Shown: in pieces, positions 1 to 62,243 of the stretch
Position numbering within the stretch: position 1 is the stretch's first letter
Layout: each line of letters begins with the position of its first letter
Source of the DNA: Vermamoeba vermiformis
Taxonomy: Eukaryota
DNA length: 64,000 bases
Direction: 5' to 3'
NCBI GenBank assembly: GCA_045837725.1
Contig: JBEWZL010000304.1
Coordinates: 1 to 64,000 of the forward strand
The notes under the pieces: model-generated
Told to the model about the DNA's origin: nothing
What the model saw: only the letters and a program-made list of their open reading frames with translations
The model's database searches: none
Translations under genes and position numbers: made by a program

Positions 1-2790
1 ATACCCCCGCGGGGATTGAATTAATCCCCAGCTTAACGTGCGCAGAGCGCAATTTATCGGTCGGATTCCATATTTGTGCAAAATGCATCAAACTGACCTC
101 GTTTTGGGTCAACCGAATCCCCAGCACTAAGTGCTGTCAATCGTTCGGATCCATCTCAGCTTGTACAATGACCCCTGCGGGGATTGGATTAATCCCCAGC
201 ATAACGTGCACGAAGTGCAAAATCAATTAACGACACTCAAAGTTTTTGAGCAAAGTATAATGTAAAGCACTTTTTAATTGGAATTACCCCCTGCGGGGAT
301 TGAACTAATCCCCAGCTTAATGTGCGCGGAGCACAATTTATCGGTCGGATTCCACGTTCGTGCAAAATGCATCAAACTGACCTTGTTTTGGATCGAATGA
401 ATCCCAGCACTAAGTGCTGTCAATTGTTCGGATCTATCTTGGCTTGTACAATGACCCCTGCGGGGATTGAATTAATCCCCAGCATAAAGTGCACGAAGTG
501 CAAAATCAATTAACGACACTCAAAGTTTTTGACTGAGCAACGTTGAATGTAAAGCACTTTTTAATTGGAATTACCCCCTGCGGGGATTGAACTAATCCCC
601 AGCTGAATGTGCGCGGAGCGCAACTATTCGGTCACGTTCTACATTAGAGTGAAACTTTTGATTAATCCCTTACAACGTGCAACAAATGATAGTCAAAATC
701 ATAATCTTGAGGATCAGACCCCTGCGGGGAATGCAGCCCCGGAACTACATGCACGTTCTTTTTGCTCGGCCTTTACTTAGCACTCAATAGCGTTCTTAAT
801 GCTCTTTTTCATTAGCTCCAACTACTTTCTTTATGCTCTTCTTATTTTAATTTTCATCATCAATTCACTTTTTTGTCATTAATTGATTCGCACCATATCA
901 TCATTGTCATGATAATCATCTTCATCATTACATTTTCATCATCATCATCATTAAAACTACCCAGTTTTTGTCATTTCTCCATGAACTACCCCCTGCGGGG
1001 AAAGCAGCCCCGTACTACAAGCGCGGTCTTTTCGTTCGGCTTTTACTTGCTCTCAGTACCGTTCTTTATGCTCTTCATTGTTAGCTCCAAGTACATTCTT
1101 TATGCTCTTTATCCGTTGATTTTCATCATCAATTCACTATTTTGTCATTCGCATACCATCATCATAAGGGTCCATTGTCATCATCACCATGATCCTCATC
1201 CTTATCATCATCATCATCCTCATCATCCTCATTGAATTAATTCAATTTTCATTCATTTTCATCTTAATTGACCCCCTGCGGGGAAAGCAGCCCCGGACTG
1301 CACGCGCGTTCTTTTTGTTCGGCATTTACTTGCTTTCAGTGCCATTCTTTATGCTCTTCGTTGTTAGCTCCAAGTACATTCTTTATGCTCTTGATTCGTT
1401 CAACCATATCATCATCATTGCCATGATCATCATCTTGTCTTCATCATCATCATCATCATCATCCTCAGGATGATCATCATCACTGCATCATCATTACATC
1501 ATCATCATCACCACTATCTACTAATTTCAATTTTCATTCATTTTCTTTAAAGTTACCCCCTGCGGGGATCGATCCCCAGAACTACATGAGCGTTCTTTTT
1601 CTTCGGCTTTTACTTGCTCTCAATGCCGTTCTTTATGCTCTTTTTTACGACACATCATCACATCATCATCATTATCATCATTCTCATATTCACGATCATC
1701 ATCATTGTCATCATCATCATATCATCTAATTTCAATTTTCATTCATTTTCTTTAAAGTTACCCCCTGCGGGGATCAATCCCCGGAACTGCACTAGCGTTC
1801 TTTTTGTTTGGCTTTTACTTTGCTCTCAATTCCGTTCTTAATGCTCTTTTTGCACGACATTGTCACATCATCTTATCATCCTTCTCATGATCATCATCAT
1901 CATCATCATAATCATCACCATCATTATCATCATTGTTATCATCATCAACTAATCTCAAATTTCACTGATTTTCTTCATAAGTTACCCCCTGCGGGGATTG
2001 ATCCCCGGAAAAGAGTGCGCGCGGAGTGCTATTAGATTCAAATATCGATCTTTATGCTCTTTTTTACACGCGAAACTGTAGGAATTACGCGCGTTAGCGC
2101 GATTATCCCAAGCTTAAAGCGTATGTGTACCAGTTAACTGTCATTGATGCCATCATAATGATGATCATCATCATCACCATCATCATTATTTAATTCATTC
2201 ATTTTTCATCACTTTTTCAAACCTACCCCCTGCGGGGATTGATCCCCAGCAAGAACGTGCGTGGAGCGCAATTAGATTCAAATAGCGTTCTTTATGCTCT
2301 TCTTTACGCGTGAAAATGATGGATTTATGCGTGTTAGCGCGATTATCCCAAGCTTAAAGCGTACGTGTACAAGAGAACCAGCATGGATACCATCGTAATG
2401 ATGATCATCATCATCATCGTCATCATCATCATCATCATCTACTAATTTCACTTTTCATTGACTTTCTTCATAAGTTACCCCCTGCGGGGATTGATCCCCA
2501 GAAAGAACGCGCGCGGAGCGCGACTAGATCCAAATCGCGTTCTTTATGCTCTTTTTCACGTGAAAACGATGGGATTTACGCGCGTTAGCGCGACTGTCCC
2601 GGAATTAAAGCACGTGTTGCTGTTACTTTACATTGATTAATATACCAATGATGAAGAATGACATCCTTCATTCTTCCATTCATTTAAAGCATTCGTGTAC
2701 CAATTAACATTCATTGTTAGAATTAACAATGAAATTTCATTCTGTTATCCTCATCATTTCATTCATTTTTATTTGGGCCCCGCGGGGATC
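1..2790. repeat. Complex satellite: 14 copies of a CCCC(T/C)GCGGGGA core at 115-300 bp spacing, with (CAT)n microsatellite tracts
   Basis: Core motif near 4, 172, 287, 455, 574, 719, 989, 1272, 1556, 1761, 1985, 2226, 2478 and 2778. Bases 1-570 form two near-identical ~283-bp units. Later units share TTCTTTATGCTCT and CAT-rich tracts. The array probably continues past the left edge. Confidence 0.9.
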
Positions 2791-2799
2791 TACGATGAA

Positions 2800-5420
2800 A
2801 TCAAACACGCTTCAACTCTAAAATATAAAGGAGTTAATAATTAATTAGATATAATAGAAAAGCGTAAATTAACTTACCTATTGAGAGCCGTACTTTTGTC
2901 AGCGATCCAAGATTAACGCGTAATCGGGTTAACTGAACAATAAAAGGTTATTAGAATTATCATTAAATAAGTTATATAATGTTTATTACTTACTTCAAGA
3001 GCCTTCAGAGCTCTTCAGCAAAACTTTAACGGATCGAGATGCGTCGGATCCCGATCCGAATTCTGTCACTCAAGGGTTGCTCTGACCCTTTTCGATCTAC
3101 AATAACGTTAGCAACGATCATTTAAACATATTTTTCCCTTACCTCGGTTCATCAGTTAGTACTGACAAAAATTTTAACGCGTTAGATCTCGCGCCACCAA
3201 ATCCACCAAAAATTCTATCCAACGGTTCTAATGAGAAATAAAGATGTTATCATCTTACAATAATAATACAAAATCAATTTTACTTACTTTTGACGCGATC
3301 GATGCGCGTCACTGAACTTTTGAGAGATCGAGTTGTTCTGTACGCGATCTCTGGCCCCAGCTTCGTGTCATCTCCTGAACGTAAAATTGTTATCAGTGAG
3401 TTATTATATCAATACTTAAGGGGGATCACTTACGTTTAAACCAATCGATGCCCCGCAAAGAAATTTTAACAGATCGAGACTCGTCGGATCTCGATCTCGT
3501 AATTGTTCCTCCGTTGTCGTCTTCGTTATTTCTAGTAATATAATGGGTTAGTATTAAGCAATATCTAACTGTAACCGCACTTACCGGGCTATTATGGGCG
3601 ATGTAACGAATCTGATAACGCGAGAAGATCGCGTTCAAGATCCGTTCTCGTTAACTATTAACACCTAAAATAATAGTGTTAGATTGTTAAACAATAATAA
3701 AATAAACGATTTGAACTACTTACGGTTGCTTCCTTATTGGGAATCGAGAGATCGGTTTCGCGCTCGATCTAAAACTCGCACCAAAGTTCTGACGTTCAAA
3801 TTACCTATTAAATAACGATTAATATATTATGTTAATTACAAAATAAACAGCAATTTAAATTTTACACGAGCACGAAGCTCGATCCGTATCTCGTAATTGT
3901 TTAAATTACAAGAGTAATTTCAAATTTTAAAATGACGCGTTCCATGCGTCTTATTGATTATTATTATTAATAAAAGATAACTTACCAATTATTCTGATGC
4001 GTCCAACGCATCCGATCTCGCCATCAAGTTGCCAAACCAACGAGCGAGCAGTGGTGATCGTCCCTGCAGCGGGACACGAACGGAAAAGGCCAGTATACCG
4101 CGAAACGACCATTGGTGGTCTGGATCTCGCGCATCGAAAGGGATTGGAACTTTCGATCGCGTTAGAAAATCGCGGCGAGTTTCTGTATTGAAAATTAATC
4201 ATTAATATAATGTACTATAATTAATAAAACGATATTCAACAAAAAATCGGGTTAAATTACGAGTACTAAGCTAGATCCGAATCCTGATGAATTTAGAACA
4301 AAAATTTAAAAATTGAATTTATGATATCTTGATATTACAATAGGTGGAACTATTGTACGAAAAATATTACCTTTAATAATCTCGGTCACTGCACCGAGAT
4401 TTGCACGACACTAGATCGCGTTCTGAGTGTCGCGCTGGAACGACGCTGAAAGTCGTTTGGCGCGTGTGTGCTGACAATAAATTAACAATCGAAATACCCA
4501 AACCGACCCTTGTGGTCGATCTGTCGCGAATCTTGGATTCGCACCTGTCAAATCTCTAAATAACTCGCGCTGAACGGCCGTCGTGGCCGTGGCGCGTAAC
4601 TATCTGCTGTTAATAAGCAATAATATAAATATAACGACCTTTGTGGTCGTTCTGTTGAATTACTGGTATTTAACAATTGTTTTTTTTCGACGTTATGGTC
4701 GAAAGTTAGAAAATAATAATGGAACCCGTGGGAGCACTGTTGTCGATTTTATAACGTACAAGAATGGTTTTTTTATTGCTTTAACCTATTCCTATTACAA
4801 TTTAAAGTTGCTCCTATGAGATTAGGTAAACTCGGACTTTGGCGGATCGAGACAGGCCACCATAAAAATTGCTGACGTGCTCTTATCTGAAGTAAAAACG
4901 ATATCAGTAAGTAATAGTACAAGTATTTAACGCGTTCTACTTACTTTTTGCGCAATCACTGCGCTCTGTCAACTTCTTATTGGATCGCTAGAGATCCGCA
5001 AGCCGATCCGGATTATTGTAAATTTTGGGTTGAAAATTTAAATTGAATGGAGGTTATCATAATATTGTAAATGATGCAAGGATATTTAAAATTAATTAAT
5101 AATAAGGTAATAATAATATTACCTTGATTTATCTCGGTCACTGCACCGAGATTCGCGCAAGTCTTGAACTCGCATTGTCTCGCGCTGGAACGATGCTGAT
5201 TATCGTTTGGCGCGTCTGTTGATTAAATGCATAATATCTAAATGGACAACCTTGTGGTCGATCTGTTGCATTGCTGATGCGAAAAACTCGTGCGAAGTTT
5301 TCGCATCAGCTCTTCATCCAAATAACTCGCGCTGGAACGGCTATGCTGCCGCGGCGCGGTACTTTCAGCTGTAATAACAATAAATAAATAAATCGACCCT
5401 TGTGGTCGATCTGTCTAAGT
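2800..5420 (-). ncRNA. Candidate multi-exon non-coding transcript (or decayed gene) with hairpin-rich exons
   Basis: Regular AT-rich minus-strand GT-AG introns at 2818-2877, 2933-2993, 3097-3142, 3228-3287, 3375-3433, 3532-3584, 3665-3723 and 3805-3865, several with CTAAC/CTAAT branch points. Exons 2994-3096, 3585-3664 and 3724-3804 have stops in all three frames. Boundaries are approximate. Confidence 0.45.
4300..5415. repeat. Diverged direct duplication (~4300-4655 vs ~5030-5415)
   Basis: Shared blocks in the same order: ATCTCGGTCACTGCACCGAGAT, TCGCGCTGGAACGA, CGTTTGGCGCGT, CCTTGTGGTCGATCTGT, AAATAACTCGCGCTG. Confidence 0.85.
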
Positions 5421-10600: not shown

Positions 10601-11635
10601 AATATCTAATCCAATATTATTAATCAATTCTTAATCTGTGCGTTGGACGAACCTTCACAACCATTTCCCGTGTTTCGGTAGCCGGTGCCGCATTGAACTA
10701 TAAAAATCAAACGATTAATGCCAAAAAAAGTGCGAACAAACGATGGAACTAACCGTAAATTAAGCTCAATAAGTTAGATACATCGCTTTGTTGCAAAAGA
10801 TCGCCGCCCACGGTGACAAACTGAGCTTCGACGCGCAGCAACGAGCTTGATTGAACGACAAACTGCGAAGACGACTCAGTGTTTGCGAAGTGCAACTCTC
10901 CTGGTGCAAGAGAGAACTCGAGTTGCGAGCCGATGGCCACAGTGTGATCAGCTAAGAAGAGTTAGCGGGAAACGCTCCAACAACGCTTTCAGACTTACGA
11001 TTTAACAAATACGTTACTTCAAAGTTCACGGTTTGGTTTCCAAAGTTAAAGACGCCAATGTTCCAAGTACGAGCAACGACGGAAGAACTTGGAACGAGTA
11101 CGTGATTGACACCTGTCATTTAACTCGAAGGTAAGCAATATGGCATCGCAACTATGTGAAAGATATCATACCTCGATACGGCGCCAGAGTTGCGCTTTCG
11201 GTTGTTATTGATTCAGTATCGACTACTACGAACAGAGCTGGGGAAGCTTGAGATATCGTAAGCACGTTTAAGGCAACTCTTTCTTGAATCTTAGCGGAAG
11301 GTACTAGAGCGGTGAAAGAAGAAAAACCGTTCGGTGTGACGGATGCGGATGTCAGTTGTCCTTGCAATAAACCTGCACGTAGTAAATAAATAAATTTAAA
11401 ATAAGCACGAGTTGGGTTGATTATTATTGAGGAAAATCCTATATAACTGGTTCGCACACAAAGAAAACGATATTTTTTTGGTAGATCGTGTCAAAAAATA
11501 AACAAATTGAATTGTAACATTATTTAGGGTTATTCAAAGCGATTTAATTGCTATAATTTTGTTTTGCTTACTTTGAGTGTTCGCAAAGCAAATGAGACCA
11601 CAGAGCAGCAAGATCAGAGCTTTACGACACAACAT
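7639..11635 (-). CDS. Type I membrane protein with repeated beta-rich extracellular domains and a Ca-binding EGF module (multi-exon)
   Basis: Signal peptide MLCRKALILLLCGLICFANTQ. EGF-Ca consensus DINECETARCRDGLNCTNLPGTYECTDCPSGF. C-terminal TM GQIWGIVLGCIAGALVLAMAIFLIV followed by a short tail. ORF-track segments join across GT-AG introns. Confidence 0.8.
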
Positions 11636-11841
11636 TTTGGCGTGACTTGTGGTCGTCTTCAGCGAAGAAAATGGAATTTAAAATGAAAAAGAAACAAATT
11701 TTAATCACGAACGTCAGCGAACGTCAAATGTCACCCAAGTACGAAAAAAACTCAAATGTTGCGCTAACCGCAAAAATTACGTGCACCACGAGCACAAGGA
11801 CGAAAGGACATTTATAAAAAACAAACAAATTTCCTGTTAGT

Positions 11842-14800
11842 TTAAGTATTGCAGCCGTTGGCGTAGACATCAAAGATGCGAGAACCACCGTCGCTGGCTG
11901 CAGGACCAAAACTATATTCGATGTAACGGACAGGGATAGGGTAGACCATGGAACGGTCGTTCAAAGCGTCGTAGATGTCGGTTTGACCGTCTTGCGTACC
12001 CCAAGTGAACCATTCGCTGTAATTGGCACCATCAGTAGAGACACGAGCGCGAGCGAAGTCCCAAACACCACGAGGTTGCTCGCTGGTGGAGATGTGAACA
12101 CCAATCGAAGAAATGTAGCGAATTTGGCCGAGATCAATGATGACCTTTTGGTCCTGATCTCCGTCGCCAAAAATGAATCCTTGCTCACCGTCGCCCCAAA
12201 CGTACTGAAAAACCTGTTAGAAACTGTGCCAATCTAGAGCCGAATGTTGTACTTACGTTAGGGGTTCGGATCAAGTTGAGAACGGCATCATAAGGAGCGC
12301 CGGCGAGGATAGAAGAGTAAGAAACTACTCTAGCACCATAGCCGTCAACAGCGTAGTTGGTACGAGTGTAGCAGCTAGTTCCAACAACCCAATTCTTGGC
12401 CATGTAGTCAAGGATGGCGGTATGCATGTCGCTACGACGGATAGGATCGGTAATTAGCTCAGAGATTTCCTTGAGCTCGTAGTCAATCATGACGGGGTTG
12501 TCGGTGATAGTGTTGGCCCATTGATCAGCTTGCTCGATTTCAAAGAGTTCTATTCCCAGTATTAGCACAATCCAATGACACTAAGGTTAAAATCTTACCA
12601 GGAGTACCACCAATGAACTTGATCTCCTTGTTTGAGTTCGCCTTGAAAGTAATGTCAAGCTTGCTTTCGTAGTCCGCCTTGGCGAAGGTCAACGAGAGCG
12701 AGATCAAGAAACCGAAGGTGAAGCCAGTTTGCTTCTGCACGAATGTTTGGGTGTTGTCGAGTAACACGGAAGTATCAATATCGAGAGTCATGGATATTCT
12801 ACCGCCAAAAACACCACGAGAAATAAAGTGCGTGCCAAAGTAAGTGAACACTTGTTCGTAAGCGGGACGGGTGTTGGGGCTGTAAGGAGGCAAGCTGTTC
12901 AAGAAATCAGCGGCAAACGAAGAGAGTTGGAAAGTTCCAGGCATGACACGAGCTAAACGAGAAATTAGATAAAGCACTTAAGTGTAAAAGAACGTACTGT
13001 TGAAGAATCTGTAGAAGCGATCGTGATTGACGAAGCGGCTAGTGGTTTTGCTGAGACGTTGCTTGACAGTCATAGTGGTCTTGCTGCTGCCAAAGAAGCC
13101 GATGGACCATCCCTTCTTCTTCTTCGTCATTTCCAAGTATTGGAAGACGTTCTCGGCATAACGACTCTCTTCAGTAACGTCAATGGAAGGATTGGCAGAG
13201 ACGAAAAGCTCATCAGGAACATCCCATGAGTCACCATTGTACGGGTTTTGGAATTTGCGGCCTCTGGTGTAGCGGAACTCAAACAAGGGCAAGCGGAACT
13301 CCTCGCTCACTAAAGGGTGTTAGTAAACGTACGACTCGTAGCCACAGTGGCACTTACAGCCATCAAAACCGGATTCCAAGAAGGAAACCAAAGGATTGGC
13401 TCCTTGAACAGCACGGGTACGAGGCATGGTGAAAGGAACTTGGACAATCTTCTCACCAAGGGAGACCAAACGATCTTCCATAACTACGTAGACGGACTGA
13501 AAGATGTTAGAATAACTCTTTCGAAAGGAGATTGCAAATGACTTACGATATGGTGAACATAGCCAGTCAAATTGAAAGGAATATTGAAGCCGTGATTTCC
13601 AGACAAGCCCAACATTTGGTTAACTTCAGGACGAGAAATATCGGTAGCAACACGAATGTACTCGACACCGTCAACGTGCACGGAGACCATGGCGGCCTCG
13701 GTAGGTCTTTCGATGTTCAAGGCCCAACCGACAACACCAGAAGCGGAGATTTGTTCCAACTAGAAATGGATGTAAGGCACAGCCAATATTATGTAATCAC
13801 CCTTACCTGACCGCGAGGGTACTTGTTCGAGATTTCGAAAGAGCCCATCAAAGGTCTTCTGCGCCCGTTAATGGTAGAAACGGCGGTAACGGTGTGAGTA
13901 CCATAAGCAGTGACGTTCAACGGAATACGGAAAGCGTGAGCTCCGGTGATGTTGTGAACACGGTTGACTACAGGACTGGCTAGGTTAGCAAGGCCAGAGG
14001 CGTACAATTGACCATTGACGAGAACGTCGATGGGAACGTCGTAGTTTATGTTGTTGCGATCGTAAGCCCAACCCTCGGCGCTGAAGAGAGTTAGTAATTT
14101 GTGATTGCACCACCTTGAATACTTACAATTGAGTAGTGACACCAGTGAGGCGACCAGGAGGAGCGAAGACACAGACACGACGTCTATCGCTCTCAGTCCA
14201 AGCCTTGTTGAAACCAATGAAACGGGCACGCACCCAATAGCAACCTTCTTGGTCGTCTCTAAAATTCAATGGGACAACAAAGCCGTGACGACCAGTGCTT
14301 TGAATGCGCTCATTCAACTCAGGTCTAGCAGAACAAATGAATAACATTAACTCTAAATTAGATTATTTGTAGTCTAATTACCTTTCAATGGTTGTAGTTC
14401 CTTGGCCAACCATCAACTTGCCAGCGTAGATTTGAACGGTGACAGGGCGATCGAAATCCAAAAGGTTGATTGCCCAGCCTCTGACTTGAGTCTCCGAGGC
14501 ACGCTCCATGAAGCCAACTGATTGATCCAAATCGGCTTCAGGACCGTTGGCAAAGATGGAGAAGATCTTTGAACCAGCACCGGAGACCGAGTTAGATCCG
14601 GCAGCACCAAAGTTGGCGCGAACATAACGAGCTGCGCGAGGCTTGTCCATGTTAAGAGCGTTCAAACGTTGGGCTAAATGATGTTAATATCAATCGTGCA
14701 GGGTCTTTTAATACTTACTGATGTTAGTAACATTGTCACCTCGCACACCAACGCGGCCCCAAAGCTCCCAGTTGACGTTGTCCAATGACGTGTAGAACTC

Positions 14801-17074
14801 GATGGCATCCCAAACAGCGCCGTCTTCACCAGGTAAAGCAACTCTGGCGCCAACGGAAGTCAAGTAACGGCGTTCGGCCAAATCAATGACAACATGTTGG
14901 TCATCGTCCTGTTCGGTATTAGTAAGGAACGACTGACCTTAAGACTTACATTAGCAGCAAACATGAAGTAGGTGTCGGGGTGGGCGGGTTGAATCAACTC
15001 AGCCTCGTCACGTCGTTCTTCGCAAACAATCTTCTTGTAGTAGACATACGTAGTAACTTCGCGGCAGACTTTAGCAACAGAGCTCGATGAAATAACAGCA
15101 GCACCGCGGTTGACATCAGCGAAGTTGACGGCATAAGCTGACAAGTTGAAGGAAGCCAAGAGATCGGAATTTGGCAAAATAATGTGATCAGGTACATCAC
15201 GGACTAAATAATCGTCAGTACTCTACTCAGTAATAAGATGACAAACTTACATCTTTCTTCGATGGCTCTCTTCAAGCAAGGTTGTCTAGCACGAATCATA
15301 GCGGCTTCAACGTCGCGCTTTTCGAACTCTTCCAAACCTCTCTTCAGGTATTCACCGCAGTCATCACGAGGGCGTGGGTAGACTCTACGACGAATTTCTT
15401 CGGCGTACTCAAACATAGCCTTCTCGACGTCAGCCTTGAGCACCAAGTCTTCAATGAAATCAGTCATTGGTGTTACTCTAATATGAACTTTTAGCACATA
15501 ATGACATTTTACTAAGGCCACTTACCTCAACGTAACCATGACGGGGTTCGAAGTGATGGTTCCCTTCCATTGTTGCCAATCGGAAGGAGCAAGACCTTCA
15601 GTGCGACCTCCTTCGTATGTGAATCGCTCCATGGAGTTGCTAGGCACGAAGTTGGGGTCAAGGTAGCTTTCGTAGAGAGCTTTTTGACCAGGGTCAGTTG
15701 CGGTCATCCAGTTCCACCAGTATCTACACCGGAGTTAGTTTAAGATCCATCAACCCAACTGAACTGCTTACTGAAGTTGTTGAGTGATCCAGTCAGGATT
15801 ACGAGCACCCATAGTGCTCATAGACAACAAGGATTCGTGCTTCATGCTACCACCGAACAAGGCGCCGATAACTACGTGAGTACCGTAAGTTTGGAAGAAG
15901 TTCTTGTAGATGGGAAGGGTCTAAATGAATGCGTTAGAGACTTTTCCTTAGAGTGAAGATGTGAACTTACGCTGTCGTCAAAGCGAGGCAAAGCAGCAAG
16001 TTCTAAGGAGTTAGATTAGTATTTGGAGCGTTGAAACTTAAACAAACTTACCGTCCTTCACTTGTTGGCTGATGGTGAGGTACTTGGGAGGCAACATGTT
16101 CATGGTGTAGTAAGTGTAAGTACGCTCGACGGTAGTCCATTGAGAAGCGCTCGTGGACATGTAGCCGTTGATGCGCATTGTGTTGAAATTCTTTGAGAAG
16201 ACACCTAACAAGCAGATGAATACCAGTCGGTAGACACTATTGTGTTAATTACGCACCATTGCTCCAAATGCTGACAGAGATACCAATCTTGCTGGCTTTA
16301 GCCTTTTGGTATTCGTAGATAGAGGCGAATGATTGAACATCCTCACTCATTGTTGCGGATGGAGAGTTCAAGATGAAAACCTCATCAGCGACAGCGTAGG
16401 TCTGTCTGTCATAGGGGCTGGTGTATGTACGACCATTCTACGGGACAAGTTACGAGGTTAATATCTCCCGTGATGAGGTTTGAGTTGGGTACTCACCTTG
16501 TTGTTCAACACGACCACCGGAGCTCGGTTCTCACCGTAGACCCAATCATAGCCAGAGCCCATGAGTTGGATACCTAAGGAGTATCATTTGTGTTACTACG
16601 GGTAAAACAGGATCAAACCCGAGTCACGATTGCAATTCCATCTAGTTTCTATAAGGTCATAGTTACCTGGTACCCATGAGTACTGCTCAACAGCATCAGT
16701 AGATCGCTTTTCAGCATCAAAGTTAATCTGTGTGTTGCCGTGGTTGTATTCCCCTGTCGCAGCCCTACGGACGGATGTCAATTAACGTAAATAAAATTTA
16801 TGCTTTTGAGTATTTATTTACTTACTTGCGTTCGTTATCCTTAAGTATTCTGTCTATTTCGGCTTGCTTTTGAGTCGCAAACTCGGCATCCAAGCGCTCC
16901 CAAATATTGACTTGACCAAAAACTCCCTAAATAATTGAGCTGAATAAGTTGCGAAACACGGCGAGTAATAAATTAAAGAAGGACAATTAATAAAAATTAA
17001 CCAATGGAATTACATACGTTTGGCGTCAGAATAACGAGCAAAGCCCAGAGCACAAGGATCCGCTTGAACTGCAT
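11842..17074 (-). CDS. Secreted protein with two MACPF (perforin-like) domains, two discoidin/F5-8-like domains and three GWA beta-repeats (multi-exon)
   Basis: Continuous spliced frame from MQFKRILVLWALLVILTPNGVFGQ to ...DVYANGCNT*. MACPF signatures YKNFFQTYGTHVVIGALFGG and YEQVFTYFGTHFISRGVFGG. Discoidin-like motifs QHVVIDLAERRY...SLDNVNWE...AARYVR and QKVIIDLGQIRY...STDGANYS...PVRYIE. Confidence 0.88.
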
Positions 17075-17365
17075 TTTCGATGCAACCGATGTGATGTGCT
17101 GTTGCAATGTAAATTCAATTTGATTTAAATTTACTCGGCAGAAAATAGAAAAAACTGTGCGTGACAGACTCTTGTCCACCCATCACCGTCAATCTCGCAG
17201 GTTGACAGCGCAAAAATTAAAAATTAAATCACAAGGGACTGGCTCATCCTCCAATCAAATCACGAGAAAGTCTGGGTAACGTGTTTGACGTACGTCATTC
17301 GCTCGTCTGCAGTTTTGTTGTTTGAGAATTTTTGTTCTTTTAAGCTCTCTTATTTATCCACAACA
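17075..17365. promoter_or_regulatory. Putative bidirectional promoter between the two MACPF genes
   Basis: Only 291 bp separate the divergent ATGs. Contains a perfect 12-bp palindrome TGACGTACGTCA (17286-17297) and CCAAT near 17251. Confidence 0.5.
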
Positions 17366-19041
17366 ATGGCTCTTGGTAACTCGGTTATATTCGTAGCCGT
17401 TTTGCTCTGCGCGAGTTGTTTCGCGCAATTCGATGATAACCCTTCTGGTTCTCGTCGCTTGCCTGGTAAGCCATTAAAGTCAAGGATGCGACGGAAATGA
17501 GATTAATCGCTAACGAACTGTCAATTTCGGATTTGAATAGTTTTTTTAAACGTAATTAATAGTCGTTAGGAGTTAATAATGTAAGCACAAAATATGACAT
17601 TAACTATTCGCTTAATTAGGTTCTGATTTAATTGGTGTCGGATTTGACATCCAAACTGCCGATGTAATGCTTCCCGTAGTCGACTTGACTTGGAGAGGCA
17701 GAGAATTTGATAGTCCTTACGACGGAAAAACTTACGAGATTCCTTATGAGGTCGATACTATCTCTACACCAGATCTCTTCCGTTCCAACTCGTCTGAGGT
17801 CAGTTCCAGCAATTTATACCTTAATTAGATCGTGCAATTGATCAACACTCGCGTGCAGGTTTATACGACAGTGGAGCAGTTCACTACTAGCCGAGCTAGA
17901 GCCACTGGCGTCAGTCTCAGCTTGGGCAACATGTTCGCCTTTACTGCCACCAAGGAGACTCAACAAATTCGGTAAGCATCACTGCTGTTTAAGTAAATCG
18001 TTAATTCGAGCTTGAGAGTCCATTTAACGAGGAGATTCGATCTTCCAAAATCGAAATTATTGCGAAACAATGATCTTGCCGCGCCTTATTGCGCTAATAA
18101 TTGCTTTATATTTTTCACCTATTTTCTTAAATTCTTTTGATGCGACTTACTCGAATCTGACGCGATCTTTTTGTAGCCAAACCCTGGATCAGAAAACGCA
18201 CCGCTTTGGTGTCGTCGAGCAGTCTCACATTTTCTTCCGTCTTCTCTTGAGTCCTCCTTTTGCTTTGAGTTTGAGCTACGACGCGAATGAATTTTTGAAG
18301 AGTTTGCCTCCCTACAGCCAAGCCACCCGCGATCAATGGAACGACTTTTTCAGCTTCTTTGGTACTCACTACGTACGAGCTGTTGACCTCGGCGGTCGTG
18401 CTCGCATGGATATCTTGCACGATATCAAGCGCTGGATGAAGAACGACACGGACTACGTCAAGACTCAATTTGGCATCAAGTTCAGGTACGAGTAATGATA
18501 AATAAGTGTTTAAATGACTAATTGTTCACAGTCTCGGCACAACTCCCGCCATTGATTTCCCTTGGACTGAAGGTCCTGCTAACGACCCCACGGCCGGAAT
18601 TCCTATCGGTGTACCAATCCCAACGAGTACGTCCATTAACATGTGCACGCTGTCTTTAACCTGTTCTGTTCAGCTGTTCGAGGACAAGGTGGCAAGAAGC
18701 GAGACTTGCAACTTCAACCCAATCTCAAGGCCAGATCCCAGTTGGCTAAGGAGAAGCGCGGCTTGCCCATCTCTTTCACCTTCTATCAAGTTCGCGAAGA
18801 GTTGAAGAACCGCTTGGAAATTGATCTCTTGGAGAATGTCAAGAATACTATCAAATTGCAGGGAGGCAAGCCTACTCAGTACGCTCCTGAGATGTGGCGC
18901 GATTGGGTGCTCACCGTCCCTGCCAACCCAACCATGATTGAGTACCAATTGGCGCCTATCTCTGACCTCGTCAAGGACCCCAACCTCCAAGCGCAAATGG
19001 CTTCCGCGATTGCTGACAAGTTGAGCACTCCTCGCCAGTAA
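17366..19041 (+). CDS. Secreted single-domain MACPF protein (multi-exon)
   Basis: Signal peptide MALGNSVIFVAVLLCASCFA. N-terminal LPGSDLIGVGFD motif. Signature WNDFFSFFGTHYVRAVDLGG. C-terminal GG...WRDWVLTVPANPTMIEYQLAPISDLV. Confidence 0.9.
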
Positions 19042-19189
19042 TTTGTACTCTTAATAATAAAGGTATTCTACCTATTTTGTCATATCAGGGCAAAAGGAGG
19101 AGATAGCCCTGCTCAAGAAAAACACGTTTGAACTCTGCTAGCCCGCGCTGGAGTTTGCGAGCCAGAAGAGGCCAAAAGCAAAAAAAGAA

Positions 19190-19260
19190 TGCACTCACCG
19201 GGAATCGAACCCGGGTCGCCCGCGTGGCAGGCGGACATCATGCCCCTAGACCATGAGTGC
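19190..19260 (-). tRNA. trnG-GCC: tRNA-Gly(GCC)
   Basis: 71-nt cloverleaf with GCACTCA/TGAGTGC acceptor stem, anticodon loop CTGCCAC and T-arm GGTTCGATTCC, followed by a T-run (Pol III terminator). Confidence 0.95.
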
Positions 19261-19390
19261 CTTGTTGATTTTGTTCGGCGAGATTTTTCGAGTCACACCA
19301 CTTTGTATGACCAGCATTAGTTTTCGTCTCTTTTTTGTTGCCATACTGTTTTGCTCCTTTTGACATAAGCATCATGTTGGAAGTGTAAGA

Positions 19391-20570
19391 ATGAATAAGG
19401 AAATACCCGAGGATTCTTCTGAATGGAAGACTCTGCACGTTGGTCCGTAAGTGTTGCGTGATCTGCTTTCCTAATTAATCAACAAGCGTTATTTTAATTT
19501 TTAAAATTTACAGAAACGCTATAATAACGGGCAGTGAAGCCGGTGTGGCGATTGGTATCAGCAAGTTAGTAAAAATATTTTGACTGGAAAATAATTACTA
19601 ATTTAAAAATTTAGATACATTATCCCAAGGTCGCTTTGGGAGGTTAAGACAGGCCGTGTTGAGGTATTAATGATCGAGTAAATTTAATTCGAATCCTTCT
19701 AATTGGAAGTCTAGCGTGTCGATCTGACAGAACTCGAAAATGCGAGTGGCAAGAGTGTAAAATTTGGCAAGCAACTAGAACCTCAATTACGCAAAATATA
19801 CGAGGTAAGCTTTATGTATGAGCTTCCCTATCTGACAGATTAAGTAGCACATAACTGGTCATGTCGTTAAACCAAGCGGCTTTGTTTTCCACCCAGAGAA
19901 CGAGCAAGTGGGTGCTACACCGGATGGTATCGTGGAACACGATCAAGAACTGCAAGAGAGAATTGTCATTGAAATAAAGTGCCCGTACTTTCGTGACTAC
20001 GACTACGTTCCTCCCGAGTACATGGCACAGATTCAAATGCAAATGGAGGTGACAGATAGTAAGGCGTGCGACTTCATATGTTACTTCCACAAGACTAGGA
20101 CGGTGAAGATTTGGCGAGTCTTTCGGTCAAAAGTCTACTGGCGTTGGATGAGCGACCTTATTAATAAATTCGTGAATTCGGTCAAACAGGTAGGTTAGGT
20201 TATGTTTCAATCGTTGTGTGAACACGCTAATAATCATTACCGTTAGGATGTTCCACCCACTAAAGATGACATTCCGCTTATTGGGCACGAAGCAGAACAA
20301 CTAGCAGCCAACGATTACAATTTCAGCACTTTAAACACAAAATTACCGAGGAGGATATTTCCGCCAAAGTGTTTTTATCAGCTGTACTATAGAGAAGGAG
20401 ATTATTCTTTGGACAAGGTTTTGGCCTTTGAGAAAGATTTCACGGTCGACGAGTCAACAGAATCCAGCCAAGTAACCAGCAAATACTTCGAGTTAATTTT
20501 ATTTTCGTTGTTTTTGCTGTTACTCTTCATTGTGGTGCTGTCTTACCCATCGTCAGTATCGTACTATTGA
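19391..20570 (+). CDS. YqaJ-like (lambda-exonuclease family) nuclease with C-terminal hydrophobic tail (multi-exon)
   Basis: Motifs SSEW...IITGSEAGVAIG, FGKQLEP, GATPDG, IEIKCP, YMAQIQMQM, CDF. The last exon ends LILFSLFLLLLFIVVLSYPSSVSYY*. Confidence 0.85.
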
Positions 20571-24211: not shown

Positions 24212-24282
24212 GCACTCATGGTCTAGGGGCATGATGTCCGCCTGCCACGCGGGCGACCCGGGTTCGATTCCCGGTGAGTGCA
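24212..24282 (+). tRNA. trnG-GCC: tRNA-Gly(GCC), identical inverted copy of 19190-19260
   Basis: Same 71-nt sequence, followed by a T-run. Confidence 0.95.
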
Positions 24283-31677: not shown

Positions 31678-34600
31678 TTAAATCTCTTTGCTTTCGGTGG
31701 CCTTGTTTCGTTCGTCGTACCATTGCGCATTCAAAAATCCCAATTGAGCTTGAATGGCTTTGATTGCCGGCGAAGCATCTTGTTTCAGTGAAATAGATCG
31801 TTGGGGCTTAACAATCTAAGCAAACAAATTTGTTAAAATTTAAGTTTTTTTTAAGCAGATCGAGTTCTGATCTTGTTGGACTTGGCTTACCTTGCAATAG
31901 TTCTCAGGGAAGTAACCTTCTTGGCCATTCAATTCACCGAGCCACCAACCACCAGGCTCACCTTGTTCAAGGACAACAATAACATCTCCTGGCTTAATCG
32001 ATAATCCTAAAATCTCAAGTTAGCACCGCTTCAATTTTTCCTAAATAGGCAAGTCCATAGTACTCACGTTGCGAGTCTTCGCTCTTATATTCATAAATAA
32101 CTTCGGCTTTGTATTTAAATGCACTTCGTCTTCGTTGTCGTGAACGTTCTTGTTCGACTTCACGGTGCGTTTTTTCTTCTTGCACGGCGGTAGGTTTACG
32201 AGGGCTATAATACATACATATGATTAATATAATTGCCCTACTATTATATATTATTTGACATTGCATACCTCTCTTTAACTTCGGCAGATTCGGTCGTAAT
32301 ACCTTCCTCCTATAATAGGAAAAGTTCATTAAACCTCACGCTTCGCAATGATTCGATCGGTAATTTTTTCGTACCTCGTTCAATTGCTCTTCTTCATACT
32401 CGAGCAATAACAACTCGTCTTCTTCTTGTTTGCTAAGTTTCTTCTTGCTCTTCAAGAACGCTCTTCGTGCATTCAATTTTTCACGCTTAGTCATGTTAGT
32501 GGTATCGGGCATGGCTGCAGGTTTGGCCTCTTCTTCTTGTTTCACTTCTTCGTCACTTGTCTGAACAGGTGTTAATACTAGTGGTCTATATTATGGTTGT
32601 TATTACTTTGGGGAGAGTGTTTACCTCGCCATCCGCAGGTTCGTCATTAATTTCACCGTCAATATCGTCGTCAATAATTTCGTGCGGGAAGACTGTCTCA
32701 GCGACTTTAAGTACGCCTCCGGACTCTTCCTCGTCCTTAATATGTGTCTCGTGTGTCTCGACAGTATCATTGTTTTCAGCAAATTCGACAACTGTTTCAG
32801 AGAATTTGACTGACTTTCTCTTCTTCAATTTTGGTTTCCTGGGCAAGTCACTGGCAGGAGCGTTGTTGCCACCAGATTCATTGGCAGCGGTGTGACGAGC
32901 AGTCTCTTCGTCGTGATAGACGTCATCGTCATGTTCTTCAGCCGGTTCTTCAGGCTTGTTCTCGCCGTCTTCGAGAGGTTGGTCACTTTCATCAGGAGTG
33001 TCACCTTCCGTGGCGTGACCATTCTCGTGAGGCTCTTCAGCCACGTGAGTCTCCTCGACAGCTTCTTCGACGTGCTCATCAGTCTTATCTTCGTGGTGAT
33101 CTTCGTGCTCACCATTTTCTTCGACGTGTTTATCCTCGTGAGTCTCTTCCACGTGTTCCTCGTGGTGTTCTTCAACGTGATTAGGCTCCTCAACATGTTC
33201 TTCGGGATGTTCCTCCGGTTCATCACTTTCGACCTCAGGTTTGACGTCATCCGTAGAATCATGCTCCACCGGAGTCTCTTCAACATGCTTCTCAGGCTCG
33301 ACATGTTCCTCAACGTGTTCTTCTGGTTGAGTTTCAATGTGCTCCTCAGGTCTGTGCTCTTCAACATGTTCCTCGGGCTTGTGCTCTTCCACGTGTTCTT
33401 CAGGCTTGTGCTCTACATGCTCTTCGACGTGTTCCTCGGGCTTTTGGTCAACGTGTGCTGCTGGTTGGGGTTCTTCAACATGTTCTTCGGGCTTGTGTTC
33501 TTCAACATGCTCTTCGGGCTTGTGCTCTTCAACATGTTCCTCGGGTTTGTGCTCCTCAACGTGTTCTTCGGGCTTGGTTTCTTCCACGTGTTCAGTGACA
33601 TGTTGCTCTGGTTTAGTTTCAACAACAGGCTCAGCTTCAACGGTGACAGTTTCAGTTTGCTTGGGCTCCAAAGCAGTGACAGCGACTTCAACGGCAACAG
33701 AAGTGATAATTTGCTTCGGTTGTTCGATGGGCTTGACGTCTGCGGGCTCTGCTTTAACTTGCTCGACTGGCTTTTCGTGATCGACACTAGACGATTCACA
33801 AATAAAATTAATTTATGTAATTAAGTCAATTACGAATTAATGGCAATTTGCTAATATTTTTAATTATCTTACCCCTTCTCAACCGGCTTGACGTCAGATT
33901 TCGTTTCAGATTTAGAACCATTAGTATCGACCTGGGGCTTCTCTGTTTTAGTCGTTGTTACTGGTTTTGAGGTGGCCTTATCGGTAGCAGCCTATTATAA
34001 CAAGATTGTTACGAAACTGTCTAATTATGTCCGAATCCAATTTAAAATCGTTTCGAAGATTCTGTGCCGTGAATACGAAATTACACATTCGAAAAAATAG
34101 AGTATACTATCCGATGCCATAATAAATTGAAAATACTTGCTTAGGATAATGTAACCATAAAAAATCGGATTAAATTTATCAGATCGATTAATTGAATCAA
34201 TAAAATGCTGTTTATAGCAAATTCCGTATTTTCTGACCTTCTCTAACAAGAACTTTTGGTATTTAACATGGTACCAAGTCACCAAAGCACCGATCCCTAA
34301 CCAGATCAAGAAAGGTACCATAGTGGTGTTGAAATAAATAAATATACTATAATACAAATAAATATGCAACCACTATATACAATAAAAATATCGAACGAGA
34401 TCTGGTATCCCTTTCAACGGTTCAAGTTACTTTTACGCAATTTTTGACCGAATTTCAACGGACGTTTTCACTGAACGGACCTCAAGCAAAAAACAATTTG
34501 TACGGCATCGTAAAGATTAAAAACTGCTTAAGGGATTGCACTAATTACCTTTTTAACGGCGGATGCGGGTGTAGTTGTAGTCTTGGGCTAAATATAGATA

Positions 34601-35967
34601 TTAGTACTTTGTAATTAGGAGGTATTTTCTGTATACCTTAGTAACAGATGTCTTCGCTGTCGCTGCAGTAGTTGGTTTTACCGCGGTAGTAGCAGGTTTT
34701 GTTGCGGTGGTCTTGGCTGAAGCTGGCTTTGCTGTTGTAGATGTGGTCGGTTTTGTCGCAGGGACTTTAGATGAAGTTGTGGTTGTTGTAGTTGGCTTCG
34801 TGGCCGTCGTAGTGGCGGGCTTTTTAACCGCAGAAGTGGTGGTCGGCTTAACAGTAGTTGTGGCGGGTTTGACTGTAGTGGATGTGGGTTTTGTCGAGAT
34901 AGTGGCAGGCTTAGTAACGGATGTAGCAGTGCTATCAGTCTTATTTGTATTGGAAGCCGTGGTTGACGTCGATGTGGCAGTGGTTGTGGCTGCAGGTTTC
35001 TTTACTGCAGCGGGTTTCGTGGTCGTTGTGACTGCTGGTTTAGGCGATGTTGTCACGGGCTTGGTGGCAGTCGTAGTGGGCTTAGAAGTCGGTGATGTTT
35101 TGACAGTTGTAGTAGTTGGCTTTAACGTTGTTGAGGTGGGTTTTGGCGATACTTTAGTGGCAGTAGTAGTGCTTGTGGGAGATGGTTTTGGTGTCGTTGT
35201 CGTCGATGTCTTGACCGGTGATTTTGTGGCTGTCGTGGTTGTGGTTGGTTTCTTTGGAGGAGAAGTTGAAGGCTTGTGCGTAGGGCTAGTTTTAGTTGTT
35301 GTAACATTAAGTCTTGGCGACTTTTTGTCTTCGCTGCTGTGATCGCTTTTGGAGTCATCATGTTTCACCACGTTCGTATTATTATCCTCCTTTGAATCGT
35401 GGCTTTTATCCGCAGTCGTGCTAGTGGTCGCAGGCTTCTTAGCGGTGGTTGCCGTGGTCGTTGGTTTCTTGACAGCGGGTGACACTTTTATCGCTGGTTT
35501 GACACTCGGTGACACGCGTGTTGGTGTCGTAGATTTTCCACTGGCCAGAGTTGGTGTCTTCGGCGTTGTAGCGGGCGACGCTCGTCTGAAATTTCCGTTT
35601 GTTAGTCATATTATTAATACCTAAGAAAGAAAACCTACTTCCCAGGGCTGGTCTTTGGCGGAGTTGGAGGCCACGCGGGCAAGTCAGGCTTAGGACTTGA
35701 AGTTGGTGTAGTTGTTTTAGAGGTCTTAGGTGTGCTCGTCTTTGGACCAGGCGAACTCAACGGAGATTTGTGGATCTTCAAGCTGCCCGCTGTTGTTGCA
35801 GCTGTTTTAGCGCTGGATCCGGTTGGCTTTGTCGTGGTAATTTTAGGAGGGGTGTTATTATTATCATTATTGCTATTTATCTTCTTATCCTTAGTCGCGT
35901 TGTCCGTATGATTATTGCTTGTTTCTTGCTTCTGCGTGTCTTCGTCGGCTTCCGAGTGATCGTCCAT
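31678..35967 (-). CDS. Low-complexity protein (T/K/P-rich, then E/H-rich repeats) with C-terminal SH3 domain (multi-exon)
   Basis: SH3 YKAEVIYEYKSEDSQRLSIKPGDVIVVLEQGEPGGWWLGELNGQEGYFPENYC. KPTTT repeats at 34600-35500. EEHKPEEHV 27-bp repeats at ~33340-33590. Confidence 0.8.
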
Positions 35968-36418
35968 TTTAATTAATTCAAAATTAATTGCTAAAGCACC
36001 TAAATAATTAAAATGACGATATTAGGCCGCTTTCTGATTTAACGTAACAAATTGAGATAATTATTAACTGATTAAATTAAATTATCGTTGGTATCGAGAA
36101 GTTTCATCTTAATTCGTCAGAAACCAAATTAATCAAATAAAAAATGTTAAAATTAATGCATTAACGCGAAACAGCATTAATTGCTGGATGCAGATTGAAT
36201 GGATCACTGACCTGCAATATGTAATCAATCGAATGGCTCGAAGTTTGTAACGTGAATATGCACTACCTTACAGTATTGTGCTTATATTCAGCTTGGTGGA
36301 CAAAAACACTGAGTTTTCTCTGTTCAACGTCTGCGCGCGTTTTTTAAAATATCTCAACGTATCTCCGATCTATTACTTTATTTACAAATTCAATACCACA
36401 ACAAAAGCAAACACTATT

Positions 36419-62019: not shown

Positions 62020-62243
62020 AATTAATTAATTATGATGGATTTTTTCTCGCACGTGCTGTTCTAAACAATCAAAAATAGAAAATGCTCCTAAAATCTATCG
62101 GAAGTGGTTGGTCATAGCTAATTAATTATCTGCCAGTACAATGACTAACGTATACTGTAAGTATAGCAATGATAGGTTCAATCAAGAAGCGATGCGAACG
62201 TTCCGTGTGGATGCGTTTATTTCTGATAGCGCCGCAAGAAAGC

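Follow-up and report, generated by a model that had tools for sequence, protein, structure and literature searches.

Proteins that carry MACPF (membrane attack complex/perforin) domains constitute the largest family of pore formers, and how such a ring orders its unlike subunits has been worked out for one case only, the membrane attack complex (MAC) of animal complement. In the present study, we describe a locus of Vermamoeba vermiformis, at positions 11842-19041 of a 64,000-nucleotide stretch of DNA (contig JBEWZL010000304.1, positions 1 to 64,000 of the forward strand; hereafter the window), in which two divergently transcribed, intron-containing genes with ATGs 291 bp apart encode three MACPF domains. 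Gene A carries two of these domains (MACPF1 and MACPF2, or M1 and M2) together with discoidin domains, and gene B carries the third. MACPF proteins and multi-component pores are already known; a chain of two diverged MACPF domains is apparently undescribed.

Among the described systems, the complement MAC (C6, C7, C8 alpha/beta and C9) and perforin-1 have the same fold and signature as the proteins encoded here, with several diverged MACPF paralogues as potential subunits of a single ring, and sequence matches were obtained between B and perforin (3nsj, E 2.8e-10) and between A and C6 (E 9e-7). In the MAC, each MACPF domain is a separate polypeptide and the sole covalent link joins C8 alpha and gamma, whereas A fuses two MACPF domains in one chain and has no TSP, LDLRA or EGF modules. 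The C-terminal C2 domain of perforin is functionally comparable to the discoidins that follow each MACPF domain in A. Compared with the MAC and perforin, the hairpin regions are shorter here, with 38-46 amino acids (aa) in M1 and M2. A further likeness is found in CDCL-L and CDCL-S of Bacteroidota, a long and a short relative within the same superfamily, although those proteins are bacterial and CDC-like, and neither has two pore domains per chain. Proteolytic activation and an immunity lipoprotein are known for the CDCL toxins, and a requirement for proteolytic activation together with a dedicated inhibitor is reported for such two-component proteins (PMC11169675). For pleurotolysin and ostreolysin, two reports (PMC4318580, PMC6433908) describe an anchor-poor MACPF protein, PlyB, whose pore formation depends on the prior binding of a separate membrane-binding partner (PlyA or OlyA); the partner in that case is a small aegerolysin and not a MACPF protein, whereas the candidate platform here is a double MACPF protein with discoidins. 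Snail perivitellin-2 combines a pore-forming MACPF unit with a carbohydrate-binding targeting unit, according to a further report (PMC12031178), but this animal egg-defence toxin is a heterodimer of one MACPF chain and a tachylectin-type chain, and has no tandem MACPF domains.

Other protist proteins also have two MACPF domains per chain, as observed for P0009 of V. vermiformis, KAG9394743.1 of Carpediemonas membranifera, P0042 of Cantina marsupialis, P0025 of Mayorella sp. and P0213 of Echinamoeba exundans (P numbers designate orthologues and relatives of A and B). With the exception of P0173, P0008, P0010 and P0012, these tandem proteins belong to other clades, are shorter (approximately 650-900 aa) and show no match to the repeats of A in the set of proteins compared, and Pfam, run on two of the other-clade tandem proteins (P0009 and P0024), revealed no discoidin in either. 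A literature search, supplementary files excluded, revealed no description of tandem MACPF proteins or of their frequency in protists, nor any functional characterisation of the examples above. The same search revealed nothing linking Vermamoeba with MACPF, with MACPF in Amoebozoa mentioned incidentally only, and the combination of MACPF, discoidin and amoeba gave nothing relevant among the results seen.

Several findings have been obtained for this locus. First, the two genes are genuine and transcribed, their transcripts are spliced, and their products are of secreted type. The locus is eukaryotic, with approximately 42-47% G+C around it and short GT..AG introns, and the gene models were obtained by splice-site prediction and refined by reading frames, RNA junctions and orthologues (P0001 and P0002 for A). 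Gene A lies on the minus strand, with its ATG at 17074 and its stop codon at 11842-11844, and comprises 21 exons encoding 1384 aa, with 20 introns of 41-93 nt. Gene B lies on the plus strand, with its ATG at 17366 and its stop codon at 19039-19041, and comprises 6 exons encoding 387 aa, with 5 introns of 46-205 nt. The exons are as follows.

17074-17018, 16926-16826, 16764-16667, 16573-16497, 16437-16257, 16204-16052, 16002-15971, 15920-15772, 15723-15526, 15477-15251, 15203-14950, minus strand: exons 1-11 of gene A
14908-14719, 14673-14382, 14324-14127, 14080-13807, 13759-13547, 13496-13358, 13309-12998, 12952-12599, 12549-12257, 12204-11842, minus strand: exons 12-21 of gene A
17366-17465, 17620-17798, 17859-17971, 18177-18485, 18532-18626, 18674-19041, plus strand: exons 1-6 of gene B

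The model of gene A is colinear with P0001 (88.0% identity) and P0002 (85.7%), with three small indels, none of which lies at an exon junction, and B aligns with P0003 over 387 aa at 91% identity. A tblastn search revealed no further MACPF copy in the 64 kb window. An earlier note on this DNA, made from the sequence alone, had delimited the locus at 11842 and 19041, which are exactly the last bases of the two stop codons, and had placed the two gene starts 291 bp apart, consistent with the ATGs at 17074 (minus strand) and 17366 (plus strand); that account lacked the intron structure, in which 20 short introns split A and five split B.

Four public runs were mapped on positions 11400-19400: X5 and X7, which are RNA-like, as Logan contigs, and X21 and X23 as raw RNA sequencing (RNA-seq) reads. 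Among the joints listed, 13 of the 20 introns of A were confirmed in spliced X5/X7 contigs (ten as CT..AC joints, two as joints with a few polymorphic letters, 14673/14719 and 15477/15526, and one as a loose end, 15971/15920), and all five introns of B were observed as GT..AG joints. The remaining junctions of A are supported because the model is colinear with P0001 and P0002. In the RNA contigs, which stop at 11801 over gene A, every pair of exons in the stretch between discoidin 1 and MACPF2, repeats included, is joined, and P0001 (1383 aa) and P0002 (1396 aa), with coding sequences of 4.15-4.19 kb, are carried by contigs of 4258 and 4234 nt. The mRNA-sized orthologue contigs and the joined exons thus indicate that A is one mRNA, and the splitting of the large model into two transcripts, regarded in the earlier note as evidence that would overturn its proposal, was not found. 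The depth in X7 was approximately 48-93 over the coding bins of B (112 for the main contig) and 10-72 over A, and in X5 approximately 7-11 over B and 2-18 over A. X21 and X23, raw runs with the same species label as the best-matching DNA record, contributed 15 and 17 reads, nearly all on a tRNA-Gly gene; these reads run into flanks unlike the window, suggesting that they derive from other copies or other organisms.

Second, the product of gene A combines, in order, a signal peptide, a conserved N-terminal region, MACPF1, a linker, a discoidin, three Ig/Fn3-like repeats, MACPF2 and a second discoidin, with the following coordinates.

16915-17074, minus strand: signal peptide, aa 1-23, spanning intron 1, read as a hydrophobic N-terminus in the translation
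16668-16914, minus strand: conserved N-terminal region, aa 24-85, with 39% identity to the matching region of P0173
15468-16667, minus strand: MACPF1, aa ~86-352, with a Pfam match on exon 15768-15920
15070-15467, minus strand: Cys-containing, helical-looking linker, aa ~353-469, with no Pfam match
14537-15069, minus strand: discoidin (F5/8 type C) domain 1, aa ~470-618, start approximate, with an exon-level Pfam E of 5.7e-3
13416-14518, minus strand: three beta-sandwich repeats with a GWA motif, ~91-112 aa each, from repeat alignment (repeat 1, 14518-14080; repeat 2, 14079-13807; repeat 3, 13759-13416)
12359-13415, minus strand: MACPF2, aa ~926-1230, with Pfam matches on 12540-12977 and 12185-12580 and the best stretch of P0001 at residues 1024-1215
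11845-12262, minus strand: discoidin (F5/8 type C) domain 2, aa ~1263-1384, with an exon Pfam E of 3e-4

At gathering scores of 21.5 bits for MACPF (PF01823) and 28.2 bits for F5/8 type C (PF00754), PF01823 passes on five exon pieces of the locus, at 12185-12580 (26.8 bits), 12540-12977 (45.0), 15768-15920 (26.7), 18028-18495 (42.8) and 18640-19041 (36.3), which together represent three separate MACPF domains. On the full-length orthologues, PF01823 reached 146.7 bits in two stretches of P0001 and 81.5 bits in P0003, and PF00754 reached 43.2 bits in two stretches of P0001, including residues 490-594, and 37.6 bits in P0002. On single exons of the window, PF00754 gave 21.4 and 17.2 bits, under the cut-off because each exon is part of the domain only, and residues 1088-1198 of P0008 exceeded the gathering score (31.4 bits). 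NCBIfam gave no match for P0001 or P0003. Thus, the profile search suggested in the earlier note identified both families, with MACPF passing on the exons and the discoidin on the orthologues P0001 and P0002, and the secreted two-MACPF gene with discoidins and three GWA repeats that had been read from the letters was recovered by Pfam and repeat alignment.

Conservation along A is uneven. MACPF1 is the most conserved part, with 92-94% identity to the orthologues; the two discoidins share 36% identity (tblastn), and discoidin 2 shows 36-43% identity to the C-terminal domains of P0008, P0012 and P0173. The N-terminal region (aa 24-85) is absent from P0010, P0012 and P0008, in which approximately 50 residues of the linker are also missing. 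What had previously been labelled a propeptide is just this conserved region of approximately 60 residues, which is also present in P0173. As judged from the profiles, A has no recognisable targeting modules apart from its discoidin domains, with galactose-type glycans or anionic phospholipid as putative ligands.

Matching sets of three repeats were observed in each of P0008, P0010 and P0012 and in P0173. The repeat and linker exons matched no Pfam family at E up to 10 beyond chance-level rows (E 0.12-0.13), and the ESM Atlas gave no usable match for the repeat region. The AlphaFold2 model of repeat 2 is an all-beta sandwich (pLDDT 85, from eight alignment rows, five of which cover the repeat), for which Foldseek revealed no match in the PDB at E <= 1e-3, and for which VIA-align gave a best Z of 6.9, to Fn3-like and Ig-like modules of glycoside hydrolases, within the stated background of the tool. 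The repeats look like generic Ig/Fn3-like spacer modules in this model. A glycan-targeting role for the GWA repeats, which had been suggested alongside that of the discoidins, was considered and rejected as unsupported, though not disproved, as the repeats have no family and fold matches at background Z.

Third, the three MACPF domains are related and strongly diverged, as had been noted from their shared motifs (SPYD/NPYN, LPR/LPP, GTH-x7-GG and W..T...NP.M, all of which are readable in the translations). Pairwise blastp gave 27% identity between M1 and M2 (E 5e-33), 21% between M1 and B (E 3e-24) and 30% between M2 and B (E 5e-26). The MACPF signature is Y/W-G-T/S-H-F/Y-x6-G-G, and it is present in the translations of M1, M2 and B, with V at the F/Y position in M1.

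An HMMER search with P0003 over 1.84 billion representative sequences returned 315 proteins at E <= 1e-3, of which 76 also passed E <= 1e-10 and 6 passed E <= 1e-30. MACPF N-halves per protein were counted by phmmer domain mapping in the best 150 of these 315 relatives (P0004-P0153): 36 proteins had two, 2 had three (P0106 and P0140 appear to have three MACPF domains), 89 had one and 23 had none, being fragments or without N-half match, and the tandem architecture was therefore observed in 38/150. The V. vermiformis transcriptome contains the tandem protein P0009 of another clade, the B-type proteins P0158 and P0005, and the A-type protein P0173 (1348 aa), which has the complete architecture of A with 36% identity over 98% of its length; P0008, P0010 and P0012 have the same architecture at 27-28% identity. 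Among the relatives found, the nearest named ones are thus echinamoebid amoebae.

In a FastTree of 156 domain segments (segments below 200 aa and P0001-P0003 were left out), M1, M2 and B fell in one clade. An IQ-TREE analysis under LG+C20 of 42 rows, comprising the M1/M2/B clade, the orthologue domains and 25 hand-picked outgroup rows of 141, gave ultrafast bootstrap/SH-aLRT values of 99/98 for M1+M2+B, 98/97 for M1, 95/90 for M2 and 98/98 for B; the branching order among the three was weakly supported (B+M1 79/18), and therefore no claim is made as to which domain B derives from. In a further quick-search tree of 28 rows, to which P0173 and P0158 were added, M1 and M2 both showed the topology ((A, P0173), P0008-group) and B the topology ((B, P0004/P0158), P0005, P0014). 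These topologies indicate that three subtypes have persisted alongside one another over a long period of diversification, during which A-types and B-types multiplied in parallel. On these trees, M1, M2 and B are classified as three conserved subtypes of one lineage-specific clade. In the P0009 family, nine N-terminal domains formed one clade and seven C-terminal domains another (FastTree), and separate clades of N- and C-terminal domains were found in several tandem families, a pattern which suggests fusion or duplication followed by position-specific specialisation, repeatedly or long ago.

Fourth, gene B encodes a signal peptide (aa 1-21, 17366-17428, plus strand) and a MACPF domain filling the remainder. 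Pfam on P0003 and its AlphaFold2 model revealed no domain besides MACPF, in agreement with the earlier description of a single-MACPF gene without a targeting domain. The AlphaFold2 model of P0003 (pLDDT 82, pTM 0.75, 40-sequence alignment) has the canonical MACPF fold, with long strands at residues 145-161, 201-219, 327-334 and 358-366 and helices within 104-140 and 228-325; a bent central beta-sheet with two helical clusters (TMH1 and TMH2) is thus predicted for B. Of the 75 matches that Foldseek gave for this model in the PDB at E <= 1e-3, perforin (3nsj, E 5.6e-17) ranked first, C6, Mpf2Ba1, GNIP1Aa, Plu-MACPF, TgPLP1 and MPEG1 were among the further leading ones, and Astrotactin-2 was also present (E 3.9e-7); the ESM Atlas returned generic MACPF clusters only. 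When the helical clusters of the model were mapped onto the alignment, M1, M2 and B each had a TMH1 of 38-43 aa whose Ser/Gly/hydrophobic core is alternating. TMH2 measured 45-46 aa in M1, M2 and both domains of P0010, 107 aa in B and 104-109 aa in P0004 and P0005, with a strongly alternating pattern in M2 and an aromatic-rich one in M1. The additional length of B corresponds to one feature.

18542-18762, plus strand: insert of ~58 aa rich in Pro, Gly and Lys, also charged, at the tip of TMH2 of B, spanning intron 5

Low-confidence segments of the P0003 model lie around this insert (residues 263-289 and 298-304). The insert was present, with variable sequence, in all B-types examined (B, P0003, P0004 and P0005), and its presence in P0004 and P0005 marks it as a hallmark of the B type. 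It could serve as an activation loop or as a block to insertion.

The two genes are separated by the following segment.

17075-17365, no strand assigned: divergent spacer of 291 bp

Within the spacer, positions 17286-17297, approximately 70 bp upstream of the ATG of B, form a perfect palindrome of 12 nt centred on ACGT, and two AATCAAATCAC-like words lie at 17222-17235 and 17253-17266. The palindrome is a candidate shared regulatory site. The depth of RNA contigs is non-zero across the spacer (bins 17007-17540), and in P0192 and P0196, members of the A-orthologue cluster, N-terminally extended open reading frames (ORFs) translate at least 159 nt of the equivalent spacer, which indicates that the 5' end of A reaches deep into it.

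Herein, we propose a "platform-plus-recruit" pore system, in which A is anchored, M1 and M2 form a built-in heterodimer and B joins at M2; we regard this proposal as quite possible and advance it tentatively. The two discoidin domains would keep A attached to its target, be it a membrane or a glycan surface, the two unlike MACPF domains of A would act as a covalently linked heterodimer seeding a ring, and the anchor-less B would be recruited beside MACPF2 to extend or complete the beta-barrel. Such a step would be analogous to C9 joining C5b-8 or to CDCL-S joining CDCL-L and, more loosely, to PlyA with PlyB. The likely use would be the killing of microbial prey or competitors, which is the most speculative element of the proposal, and bacteria or prey, the targets suggested in the earlier note, are purely hypothetical.

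Several results are consistent with this proposal. Both transcripts were observed in both RNA-derived runs, X5 and X7, at comparable depth, the four runs in all being too few for a correlation. For four of the six members of the 90% cluster of B, the longest contig listed has exactly the same size as that of an A-cluster member (5708, 9618, 5816 and 5668 nt), and approximately 5.7 kb corresponds to both spliced coding regions plus the 291-bp spacer; the pairs concerned are P0189/P0203, P0192/P0202, P0196/P0204 and P0195/P0205. From these matching sizes, four orthologue contigs appear to carry both genes, with mRNAs that abut or overlap and were assembled together. The V. vermiformis records contain an A-type protein (P0173) next to two B-type proteins (P0158 and P0005). 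B lacks any anchor domain; well-studied autonomous MACPF pore formers, e.g. perforin, carry a membrane-binding domain. Finally, an ESMFold2 complex of M1, M2 and B, predicted without alignments of its own, gave a median score of 0.38 (runs of 0.32, 0.40 and 0.38), graded as weak support, compared with 0.00 and 0.00 when B was replaced and 0.04 when M2 was replaced; the partner pLDDT was 55-56 in the three runs, stated by the tool as at least 54, and the contact agreement between runs at least 57%. In the calibration of this method, the mark was reached by 51/78 solved complexes and 2/108 mismatched pairs, and passes at or below 0.60 are more often wrong than right.

Other results weigh against the proposal. 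The complex score lies in the weak range, with no confident model of B touching A, and it may stem from a memory of solved complement MAC structures. The signature histidine of M2 is lost in P0008, P0010 and P0012, suggesting that not every domain need be pore-competent, and the proline- and charge-rich TMH2 insert of B is hard to square with simple membrane insertion. X21 and X23 were near zero on A and B, although, with no positive control for transcripts of this genome, these runs are not usable as evidence of silence. In a metagenome scan for relatives of B, five loci were obtained, of which three were too short for neighbours and two (L003 and L004) had usable flanks; tblastn with P0001, P0009 and P0173 revealed no second MACPF gene within 2.4 and 3.5 kb upstream of these two B-type paralogues, respectively, or within 1 kb downstream in L003. 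The upstream region of L003 (1-2385) contains unrelated ORFs, and that of L004 (1-3531), read by eye, contains a small hydrophobic membrane protein (2677-2904, minus strand) and HEAT-repeat-like pieces (159-916, minus strand); these unrelated ORFs indicate that B-type genes do not in every case have an A-type gene beside them. A contig of 470,054 nt is listed both for fragments of an A-type paralogue and for those of a B-type one, and P0008 is carried by a contig of 55,305 nt. Adjacent paralogues of one clade can also be the relic of a local duplication.

Accordingly divided are the expectations of the earlier note on joint function. Of its central claim, that the genes are co-expressed subunits of one hetero-oligomeric pore, the occurrence of both transcripts together was observed in X5 and X7 and is suggested by the matching contig sizes; for the hetero-oligomer itself the prediction of domain contacts that it called for yielded the weak score of 0.38 against 0.04 for the best control. 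The pairing in related protists, which it named as a check, appears to hold for the near-identical orthologues (4/6 B-cluster members) and did not hold at either of the two informative loci of B-type paralogues.

The explanation that competes best is that A and B are independent paralogues, adjacent through local duplication or a compact genome, with A a self-sufficient homo-oligomeric ring in which its two MACPF domains are neighbouring protomers, and B acting alone or with an unlinked partner. We consider this possible but somewhat doubtful. It gains from the single clade of all three domains, as local duplication predicts, from the lack of a MACPF neighbour at both informative loci of B-types, from the 89/150 relatives with a single MACPF N-half (some perhaps fragments, among the best 150 of 315) and from the weak complex score, but no domain for binding membranes or glycans is recognisable in B, the transcripts of A and B were both present in X5 and in X7 and apparently share four contigs, and the predicted contact of B is gone when M2 is replaced (0.04 vs 0.38). 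In addition, the divergence among B, M1 and M2 is deep (21-30% identity), so that under this explanation the two genes would have remained neighbours over a long period.

A role of B as a regulator of A, i.e. a cap, terminator or decoy at the open edge of the oligomer that limits ring growth or protects the producer, with the TMH2 insert preventing insertion or acting as a protease-sensitive switch, seems improbable to us. The conservation of the insert in all B-types examined, despite its variable sequence and in contrast to the TMH2 of 45-46 aa in M1 and M2, would suit such a role, as would the weak predicted contact with M2 and the precedent of two-component relatives that require proteolytic activation and possess a dedicated inhibitor (PMC11169675). 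However, B has kept the MACPF signature, TMH1 and both flanks of the insert show amphipathic Ser/Gly/hydrophobic stretches, as in a pore-competent domain, and the inhibition is hypothetical. 

A non-lytic role in adhesion, cyst-wall formation or developmental signalling, as for astrotactin or Torso-like, with the discoidins (classical adhesion or lectin modules) mediating adhesion, is very improbable: Astrotactin-2 is among the fold matches of B, and expression looks conditional (present in X5/X7 and, by mRNA-sized contigs, in the JGI/IMG records of P0001-P0003, and near-absent from X21/X23, for which there was no positive control), but genuine pore formers (perforin, C6, Mpf2Ba1, GNIP1Aa, Plu-MACPF, TgPLP1 and MPEG1) head the list of fold matches, and the alternating pattern expected of membrane-spanning beta-hairpins is seen in TMH1 of all three domains and in TMH2 of M2.

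Several observations concern other parts of the window. Two tRNA-Gly(GCC) genes were found, at 19190-19260 (minus strand), approximately 150 bp past the stop codon of B, and at 24212-24282 (plus strand). Between them, an ORF piece at 19908-20198 (plus strand) matches the YqaJ-like viral recombinase family PF09588 (31.6 bits, cut-off 22, E 2.3e-7), and this piece, downstream of the MACPF pair, may represent a mobile element or a virus-derived gene. The region 32000-36000 has a strongly skewed composition, in which the AT skew falls to -0.31 and the GC skew rises to +0.23, with long open frames on both strands, e.g. 32586-33812 (minus) and 32814-33824 (plus), and a 27-nt (nine-codon) tandem repeat of 10.4 copies at 33310-33593; it is probably a repetitive low-complexity coding region, with no Pfam match. 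An open frame of 577 aa at 60292-62025 (minus strand) gave a sub-threshold leucine-rich-repeat match (PF25019, 20.8 bits, cut-off 27), the sole Pfam row obtained from ten other long ORFs of the window.

Returning to the platform-plus-recruit proposal, a chain in which two diverged MACPF domains are naturally fused sets both their stoichiometry and their order as neighbours. If the proposal is true, A together with its anchor-less neighbour B would provide a simple, genetically tractable model for the assembly of hetero-oligomeric pores, and would represent an unstudied tool for killing or defence in free-living amoebae, which are grazers of bacteria and shelters of pathogens. In a broader hypothesis, which we consider unlikely as it stands, amoebae, and perhaps many protists, might have evolved a complement-like, multi-subunit attack pore independently of animals, with A as two fused subunit types, each with a discoidin anchor, B as a C9-like anchor-less subunit expressed from the same bidirectional promoter, and A- and B-types duplicated in step (the A/P0173/P0008-group alongside B/P0004/P0005). 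Such duplication in step would, if true, give matched sets with different targets. Even apart from the idea of a hetero-oligomer, tandem MACPF proteins whose N- and C-terminal domains have conserved identities specific to their position are frequent among protist relatives, with the tandem architecture observed in 38 of the best 150 of 315 relatives.

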